Positions 58,280 to 59,047 of a DNA stretch of 64,000 nucleotides are shown here, piece by piece. The DNA is taken from the NCBI RefSeq assembly GCF_016026235.1, contig NZ_CP065613.1. One strand, 5' to 3'. Each line of letters opens with the position of its first letter. Within the stretch, counting starts at the first letter, position 1. A program made the position numbers and the translations under genes. Below the pieces are notes generated by a model. The model made no database searches, had not been told where the DNA came from, and saw only the letters and a program-made list of their open reading frames with translations. The DNA is from Escherichia coli (GTDB lineage Bacteria > Pseudomonadota > Gammaproteobacteria > Enterobacterales > Enterobacteriaceae).

Positions 58280-58334
58280 GGTAATGCTGCCAACTTACTG
58301 ATTTAGTGTATGATGGTGATTTTAAGGTGCTTGC

Positions 58335-58610
58335 GTGGCTTCCATTTCCATCAGATGTGCTTCCTGCTCCGCTACTGAAGGCGTGGTGCGTAACGGCAAA
58401 AGCACTGCCGGACATCAGCGCTATCTCTGCTCTCATTGCCGTAAAACATGGCAACTGCAGTTCACTTACACCGCCTCTCAGCCCGGTACGCACCAGAAAA
58501 TCATTGATATGGCCATGAATGGCGTCGGATGTCGCGCCAGTGCACGCATTATGGGCGTTGGCCTCAACACGGTTTTACGTCACTTAAAAAACTCAGGCCG
58601 CAGTCGGTAA
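58335..58610 (+). CDS. insA: IS1 InsA
   Basis: 91 aa [46 protein letters not shown]... with zinc-finger cysteines; recognised as InsA. Confidence 0.9.
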
Positions 58611-59032
58611 CCTCGCGCATACAACCGGGCAGTGATGTGATTGTCTGCGCTGAAATGGACGAACAGTGGGGCTACGTCGGTGCTAAATCACGTCAGCGCT
58701 GGCTGTTTTACGCGTATGACAGGATACGGAGGACGGTTGTGGCGCACGTCTTCGGTGAACGCACTCTGGCCACACTGGAGCGTCTTCTGAGCCTGCTGTC
58801 GGCCTTTGAGGTCGTGGTATAGATGACGGATGGCTGGCCGCTGTATGAATCACGCCTGAAGGGAAAGCTGCACGTTATCAGCAAGCGTTACACTCAGCGC
58901 ATTGAGCGACATAATCTGAATCTGAGACAACATCTGGCAAGGCTGGGACGGAAGTCACTGTCGTTCTCAAAATCGGTGGAGCTGCATGACAAGGTCATCG
59001 GGCATTATCTGAACATAAAACACTATCAGTAA
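58529..59032 (+). pseudogene. insB: IS1 insB with an internal TAG stop (58820-58822)
   Basis: The insB frame reads ...[42 protein letters not shown]...; canonical IS1 has Trp at this position as I recall it (..VIWMTDGW..), so TGG to TAG. Confidence 0.7.
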
Positions 59033-59047
59033 GTTGGAGTCATTACC

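Follow-up and report, generated by a model that had tools for sequence, protein, structure and literature searches.

An IS1F copy with an inherited insB amber codon at a very probable deletion scar in the leuX island of Escherichia coli

Within a 64,000-nucleotide stretch of Escherichia coli DNA (the window), one copy of the insertion sequence IS1 joins two truncated, unrelated sequences. How did the element come to lie there, and does the stop codon in its insB gene mean that it can no longer move? We compared the element with other IS1 isoforms and its two flanks with phage P4 and with other E. coli genomes. A pattern search with the left terminal repeat returned 2 matches in the 64-kb window, where 0 are expected by chance, and the resulting 23-bp repeats and the length of 768 bp bear out the boundaries given in a preliminary description of the locus. 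The segment is the only IS1 copy in the window. Its length and ends agree with the ~768 bp and ~23-bp imperfect inverted repeats of the IS1 family, as does its layout, with insA followed by insB' in the -1 frame and an A6C slippery motif. The parts of the element are as follows.

58280-59047, + strand: IS1, assigned to isoform IS1F, non-autonomous copy, 768 bp, 762/768 positions as in K-12 MG1655 IS1F
58280-58302, + strand: IRL, left terminal inverted repeat GGTAATGCTGCCAACTTACTGAT, from the pattern search of the window
59025-59047, - strand: IRR, right terminal inverted repeat, 20/23 match to IRL with 3 mismatches
58335-58610, + strand: insA, intact, 91 codons, GTG start, carrying Pro9Ala (ORF list and isoform comparison)
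58584-58592, + strand: A6C programmed -1 frameshift motif TTAAAAAAC, intact on reading of the sequence
58529-59032, + strand: insB frame, interrupted by TAG, which cuts off the last 69 codons (ORF list)
58820-58822, + strand: amber codon in insB, TGG to TAG, common to K-12 IS1F

InsA and the 69-residue insB tail behind the stop codon both match the 199-position NCBIfam transpos_IS1 profile of the IS1 transposase, the former at positions 1-81 and the latter at 156-199. The InsAB' frame is not continuous, the TAG at 58820-58822 separating this tail from the rest of the protein. The PGAP annotation flags homologous IS1 copies with an internal stop, adjoining an IS4-family pseudogene. What the element at 58280-59047 lacks are the marks of an autonomous copy and of a simple insertion, not those of family membership.

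An alignment to reference IS1 isoforms, proposed in the preliminary description, places the window copy at 68 differences from IS1A (700/768 identical, 91.1%) and at 6 differences from the IS1F of K-12 MG1655 (NC_000913.3 4518472-4519239; insA7 b4294, insB7 b4576). On the basis of this near-identity to K-12 IS1F, of ~90% identity to consensus IS1 and of the amber codon, we assign it to IS1F, which in E. coli K-12 represents the divergent 'type IV' form of IS1. K-12 IS1F itself has 73 mismatches to consensus IS1 (90.5% identity) (PMC12428005). The window and K-12 copies agree in their 768-bp length, identical terminal repeats, amber codon, intact insA and A6C motif and lack of a target-site duplication, and both sit in the leuX-linked island region. 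They differ in their flanks (ykiE/fecI on the left and yjhU on the right in K-12, a truncated psu gene, psu', and an IS4-family relic in the window) and by six substitutions, two of which, at element positions 80 and 178, are found in the window copy only. The 'consensus' elements IS1A and IS1E share the length, insA, the A6C frameshift, insB' and the terminal repeats, but the 68 substitutions that separate IS1A from the window copy include one in IRL, and IS1A carries TGG and encodes an active transposase. The substitution at position 80, a G instead of a C at 58359, corresponds to InsA Pro9Ala in the N-terminal Cys-x-x-Cys zinc-finger motif (IRCPSCS to IRCASCS). None of the other IS1F or IS1A copies compared has this G, and the matches to 17/17 related genomes end at base 58359. 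The second private difference, a G at 58457, is synonymous.

The stop codon had been described as standing where canonical IS1 encodes Trp. This is the case, the insB frame around 58820-58822 reading GTC GTG GTA TAG ATG ACG in the window and GTG GTG ATA TGG ATG ACG in IS1A. It had also been considered that a reference isoform might share the codon, and K-12 IS1F does; its insB7 is annotated as a pseudogene, and the TAG is thus not peculiar to the window. We found it in MG1655, TUM23335, an ST131 isolate, SCU-306, JNE170426 and FDAARGOS_943, with TGG in an O157:H7 IS1F-like copy and in the variant of strain E1316. A 61-mer centred on TAG has an exact copy as its top match in ~2,850 E. coli records of the complete-genome collection, and the K-12-type left junction between ykiE and IS1F occurs in 2,598 genomes. 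The insB amber codon is therefore an old inherited IS1F allele, which about half of the complete E. coli genomes covered by the search carry. It is neither a recent mutation nor a sequencing error, and there is no need to confirm it by re-sequencing, as was once suggested.

Judged from its reading frames, the window IS1F cannot make full-length InsAB' transposase, although insA, both ends and the frameshift site have been retained. The earlier inference that this copy probably cannot transpose on its own gains support from this defect and from K-12 IS1F, which has the same TAG and essentially never transposes natively (PMC12428005). The sharing of the TAG removes the uniqueness of the codon and leaves the case for non-autonomy untouched. 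A defect in cis does not mean immobility: overproduction of InsAB' in trans mobilises K-12 IS1F more readily than any other non-consensus copy (PMC12428005, PMC12903888). Strain FDAARGOS_943 contains a second TAG-bearing IS1F (L015 24421-25188, near acuR), which differs by 1 nt from its leuX copy and has a perfect 8-bp repeat, ATGCTTTG, on its two sides. Reconstruction of the unoccupied target shows it to be intact in 964 genomes; the junction with IS1F is confined to FDAARGOS_943. This private copy with its target duplication indicates that a defective IS1F has recently transposed on borrowed transposase; genomes of this lineage have ~40 IS1 matches each. The window IS1F is non-autonomous yet not inert.

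We next consider the two sides of the element. On its left it abuts ttctgacaggtgtca and on its right cggcgtgcgtgccag, the innermost nine bases being caggtgtca and cggcgtgcg. A direct comparison of the 15-nt flanks revealed no common 6-mer and hence no 8-9-bp target duplication, as the preliminary description had stated; the same comparison rules out a duplication hidden by a slightly shifted boundary, an outcome that had been left open there. Duplications are readily seen at other copies. An IS1A in FDAARGOS_943 has a clean 9-bp repeat, agtaggtgc, which the window IS1F has no counterpart of, and the second IS1F of the same strain, with its 8-bp repeat, serves as another positive control. The IS1A copy (L001 2502-3269, corresponding to window 52965-52973) sits just downstream of a satellite integrase gene, and the site is empty in the window.

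The left flank can be traced to a P4-like satellite, in the following order.

51073-51157, + strand: tRNA-Leu(CAA), leuX, satellite attachment site attL
51321-52577, + strand: P4-type tyrosine integrase of the satellite, annotation transferred from FDAARGOS_943
52669-56848, + strand: UG5-nitrilase reverse transcriptase (RT) cargo gene (PADLOC RT_UG5-nitrilase)
56845-57534, + strand: RTasTM, small membrane partner of the RT, 229 aa
57572-57735, no strand assigned: cos-proximal right-end satellite sequence downstream of psu, by P4 homology (locus L006 1-708 = window 57572-58279)
57736-58279, - strand: psu', P4 polarity-suppression gene without its first 29 nt (Pfam Psu E = 6.6e-86; P4 alignment)

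Positions 57572-58279 are 98.8% identical in nucleotide sequence to phage P4 (NC_001609), the match starting at the last base of the P4 genome. IS1 had been said to truncate the 5' end of the open reading frame at 57736-58279, and the alignment now puts this loss at exactly 29 nt, the first 10 codons of psu (MESTALQQAF). To the left of IS1 thus lies that half of a leuX-integrated P4-like satellite which extends from the integrase to psu. Like P4 and other leuX satellites, it has a tRNA-Leu attachment site, a P4-type integrase and the right end with psu, and like other P4-like satellites at leuX it carries defence-gene cargo between the integrase and cos/psu. Unlike them, it is incomplete: attL, int, the cos-proximal DNA and psu' are kept, and psu codons 1-10, delta, sid, the immunity region, the alpha primase gene and attR are absent. 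Its RT cargo differs as well, being broken by an IS4-family insertion. This 1,293-bp element at 55406-56698, with a 429-aa transposase on the minus strand, splits the RT gene, is flanked by the 11-bp duplication ggggaaaacca and is not found in the RT gene of FDAARGOS_943; the PADLOC RT_UG5-nitrilase match is full-length for the intact 958-aa homologue of E1316.

The right flank belongs to a different kind of sequence.

59048-59360, + strand: IS4-family relic, last 94 transposase codons (one internal stop) and terminal repeat CACTGAGGGATCCCCA
59381-60205, - strand: MurR/RpiR-family regulator, first intact gene rightward

In a tblastn comparison, the relic is 45% identical (E = 3e-21) to the 429-aa transposase encoded by the intact element that splits the RT gene (55406-56698), a protein that in turn matches NCBIfam transpos_IS4_2 at E = 1e-107. 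With an IS4-type transposase end and a shared terminal repeat, the relic belongs to this family, only the 3' 313 bp being left, so that the decayed end of another insertion sequence does indeed abut IS1, as first noted. Copies of the element elsewhere match window 59053-59360, and PGAP labels the relic as an IS4-family pseudogene.

Were the two flanks ever neighbours? In phage P4 and in intact satellites, psu continues into delta and sid and on to alpha. The same satellite cargo is present in 30 genomes, and in JNE170426 and M19, the genomes compared that do not have the window junctions, the satellite is complete at leuX. There, the order is leuX, int, RT, TM protein, psu (573 bp), delta, sid, immunity genes and alpha primase, and the satellite ends at an attR-like repeat at about L013:17357. 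Relative to these two genomes, the window lacks ~6.8 kb of the satellite. Segment 59048-59500 is present in 78 genomes, in 16 of which IS1 adjoins it. In 13C1079T and HH45, the relic is uninterrupted by IS1 and runs leftward, with gagcgttttggttt directly in front of cggcgtgcg; further to the left lie an enterotoxin pseudogene, an IS110 relic and a dpd island. The junction between psu' and IS1 occurs in 17 genomes and that between IS1 and the relic in 16, all of them close relatives with 99.4-99.9% identity over 3.5 kb. No genome examined has the psu and relic flanks contiguous, which argues that DNA has been lost at IS1 and that the element is not a simple insertion.

The preliminary description had favoured deletion or recombination over simple insertion, and the comparison with related genomes that it called for supports this choice: the flanks are never adjacent, both continue differently elsewhere, and the missing DNA comprises ~6.8 kb of satellite and some island DNA. 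A simple IS1 insertion whose 8-9-bp duplication has decayed, or whose boundaries were misjudged, is conceivable as a general possibility. The flanks, however, show no common 6-mer and belong to unrelated sequences, and since psu runs into delta in intact satellites and the relic runs leftward in IS1-free genomes, this explanation is refuted for practical purposes. Genomes with ~40 IS1 places invite misassembly, and one could imagine a collapsed or misjoined IS1 repeat with a TAG that is a sequencing error. This we regard as having next to no chance of being correct, as 16 independently assembled complete genomes share both junctions at the identity given above, and as the 61-mer around TAG is exact in the ~2,850 records, K-12 MG1655 among them.

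The relic has been joined to IS1F elsewhere at another point. SCU-306 and strains such as DEC5E (O55:H7) have a TAG-bearing IS1F that meets this relic at window 59225, 177 bp deeper, and that has another sequence on its left. Matches starting at window 59225 are also found in 55989 and O104:H4, among others; these are matches to the relic and do not imply that IS1 is present there. We considered the SCU-306-type junction as the ancestor of the window junction and rejected it: it lacks 177 bp that the window has kept, and IS1-free genomes carry the whole relic. The window-type and SCU-306-type right junctions are independent. An apparent 5-bp extension of homology to the left of IS1 in SCU-306-type genomes was likewise dismissed, being a chance tgtc match between flanks that differ. 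At the SCU-306 junction itself (L002 6773/6774, compared with L008 ~6170-6180; window 59218-59225), the IS1 end GTCATTACC lies beside the relic sequence GACATTA/GCGAAG, and the pentamer CATTA is common to the two. This may reflect chance or microhomology at the breakpoint.

Taken together, we think it very probable that IS1F marks a deletion scar inside the leuX island, which cut off most of the P4-like satellite. The starting point would be a P4-like satellite integrated at tRNA-Leu(CAA), with integrase, UG5-nitrilase RT cargo, cos and the genes from psu, delta and sid to alpha. An IS1F copy would then have been moved by the transposase of another of the IS1 elements in the genome and would have inserted into one of two targets, psu or the IS4-family relic that lies upstream of the MurR-like regulator. 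An IS1-anchored deletion could subsequently have removed everything between the psu and relic points, either by recombination with a second IS1 copy or by a transposase-mediated adjacent deletion. Lost in this event would be 29 nt of psu, delta, sid, the immunity and replication genes and attR, which make up the ~6.8 kb, together with further, older island DNA. Recombination between IS copies and adjacent deletion are the two routes usually invoked for missing duplications (PMC11708052), and either leads to one IS1 with two unrelated flanks and no duplication. The window resembles known IS-anchored deletions, in which one IS is left between formerly distant sequences without a target duplication (PMC11708052). 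It differs from them in that its IS1F encodes no functional transposase, so that any transposase step needs the enzyme of other IS1 copies.

IS1F has probably arrived recently at the psu/relic site, because both window junctions are unique to one clade and because the block of fec, ykiE and IS1F in E1316 lies beyond the module that runs from MurR to rbsK. The latter arrangement also led us to discard a resident ykiE-IS1F with deletions on both sides as a simple route, as in E1316 this block is found to the right of the MurR to rbsK module and not between psu and the relic. We looked for an intermediate, with IS1 in psu or in the relic at 59048 and with its own duplication, and found none in 5,426 complete E. 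coli genomes; the order of events, as well as the choice between recombination and adjacent deletion, is thus what we infer. No chimerism is seen in the window IS1, and a two-copy route would consequently need two parents of the IS1F type or a crossover near an end. For the window scar, recombination and adjacent deletion have roughly equal odds.

Strain E1316 provides a view of one of these processes at the same element. It keeps the junction between psu' and IS1, but with a chimeric IS1 (L011 10581-11348; L012 14851-15618), which is IS1F-like up to about position 156 and from position 157 is identical to another isoform of the same genome, except at position 764, and which carries TGG. On the right this IS1 adjoins a truncated rbsK/PfkB kinase gene, located ~13 kb downstream in the window-type genome FDAARGOS_943, and relative to the window type E1316 lacks ~13 kb with MurR, PTS, LacI and fucP genes. 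E1316 shows that recombination between IS1 copies has deleted DNA at this very element. Another IS1A of FDAARGOS_943 (L015 12187-12954) has no target duplication; on one side of it is a small hypothetical gene and on the other a truncated fimF. In JNE170426, the same small hypothetical gene is found just upstream of fecE. This suggests another IS1-associated deletion, of fec and part of fim, in the leuX-fim region.

Deletion by the classical routes has to be weighed against two other origins of the junctions. It has been proposed for IS5 and IS481 that an element can insert into a DNA break in the course of an unrelated deletion (PMC11708052). For IS1F this would account in a single step for an IS at the centre of a deletion without a duplication. 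Such events are not known for IS1, and with both classical routes directly documented in sister strains no further mechanism is required; we consider it very unlikely. Somewhat less remote, though still improbable, is that the junctions were made elsewhere and that IS1F served merely as homology for the import of leuX-island DNA after horizontal transfer, with no deletion in this lineage. The flanks of TAG-bearing IS1F copies do vary, with ykiE (K-12, ST131, JNE170426), a 209-codon open reading frame (SCU-306) or psu (the window) on the left, and yjhU, an IS3 relic or the IS4 relic at 59048 or 59225 on the right, and such a mosaic is the expected product of recombination through a shared IS. 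Homologous recombination, however, only reassorts existing junctions, and a transposase-dependent step is still needed for each of them. Moreover, both window junctions are confined to the same 16-17 related genomes, and no donor is visible. A deletion scar remains our preferred reading, and its junctions might have arisen in a different strain and reached this one by recombination.

The junction also affects how psu' is annotated. PGAP places a 185-codon 'phage polarity suppression protein' (WP_016234065.1) at 57736-58293 on the minus strand, with a TTG start inside the left end of IS1 (IRL). In SCU-306, the same TTG starts a 209-codon 'hypothetical protein' (L002 5390-6019, minus strand) that extends into the different left flank. 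Both look like artefacts of open reading frame extension at the IS1 junction. For psu', this is supported by the loss of the native promoters upstream of sid, by the lack of an evident ribosome-binding site (Shine-Dalgarno) at the TTG and by the position of the sole outward promoter-like site, which would start transcription downstream of the TTG. In this hybrid site at 58293-58264 (- strand), the -35 TTGGCA comes from IRL and the TG-extended -10 CAGAAT from psu, with a spacer of 18 nt between them; the site is defined by its match to the consensus only. The next in-frame Met of psu' after the TTG is found around residue 85. It is probable that psu' is a pseudogene.

The feature is real, ordinary and of a known kind: a hypervariable island linked to a tRNA gene bears an IS-mediated scar, at which a known defective isoform lies. 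Only two points are mildly new, the chimeric IS1 of E1316 and the natural mobilisation in trans of an amber-bearing IS1F. Outside annotation, the finding has little importance; within it, the element can be named IS1F, the stop codon recognised as inherited and the psu' open reading frame flagged as an artefact. The deletion explains why a non-inducible satellite remnant is left at leuX, one without delta, sid, alpha and attR. In a wider sense, there is perhaps an even chance that IS1F is a widespread non-autonomous IS1 derivative, which moves on borrowed transposase and may have repeatedly reshaped the leuX island by IS1-anchored deletions. If so, the immobility of K-12 IS1F, described in 2025 without an explanation, would have a simple genetic cause in the truncated InsAB'. 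A modest general point is that the transposase-defective IS1F still transposes, as in FDAARGOS_943, and recombines, as in E1316, and is therefore still an agent of island erosion in IS1-rich lineages of the enterotoxigenic type.
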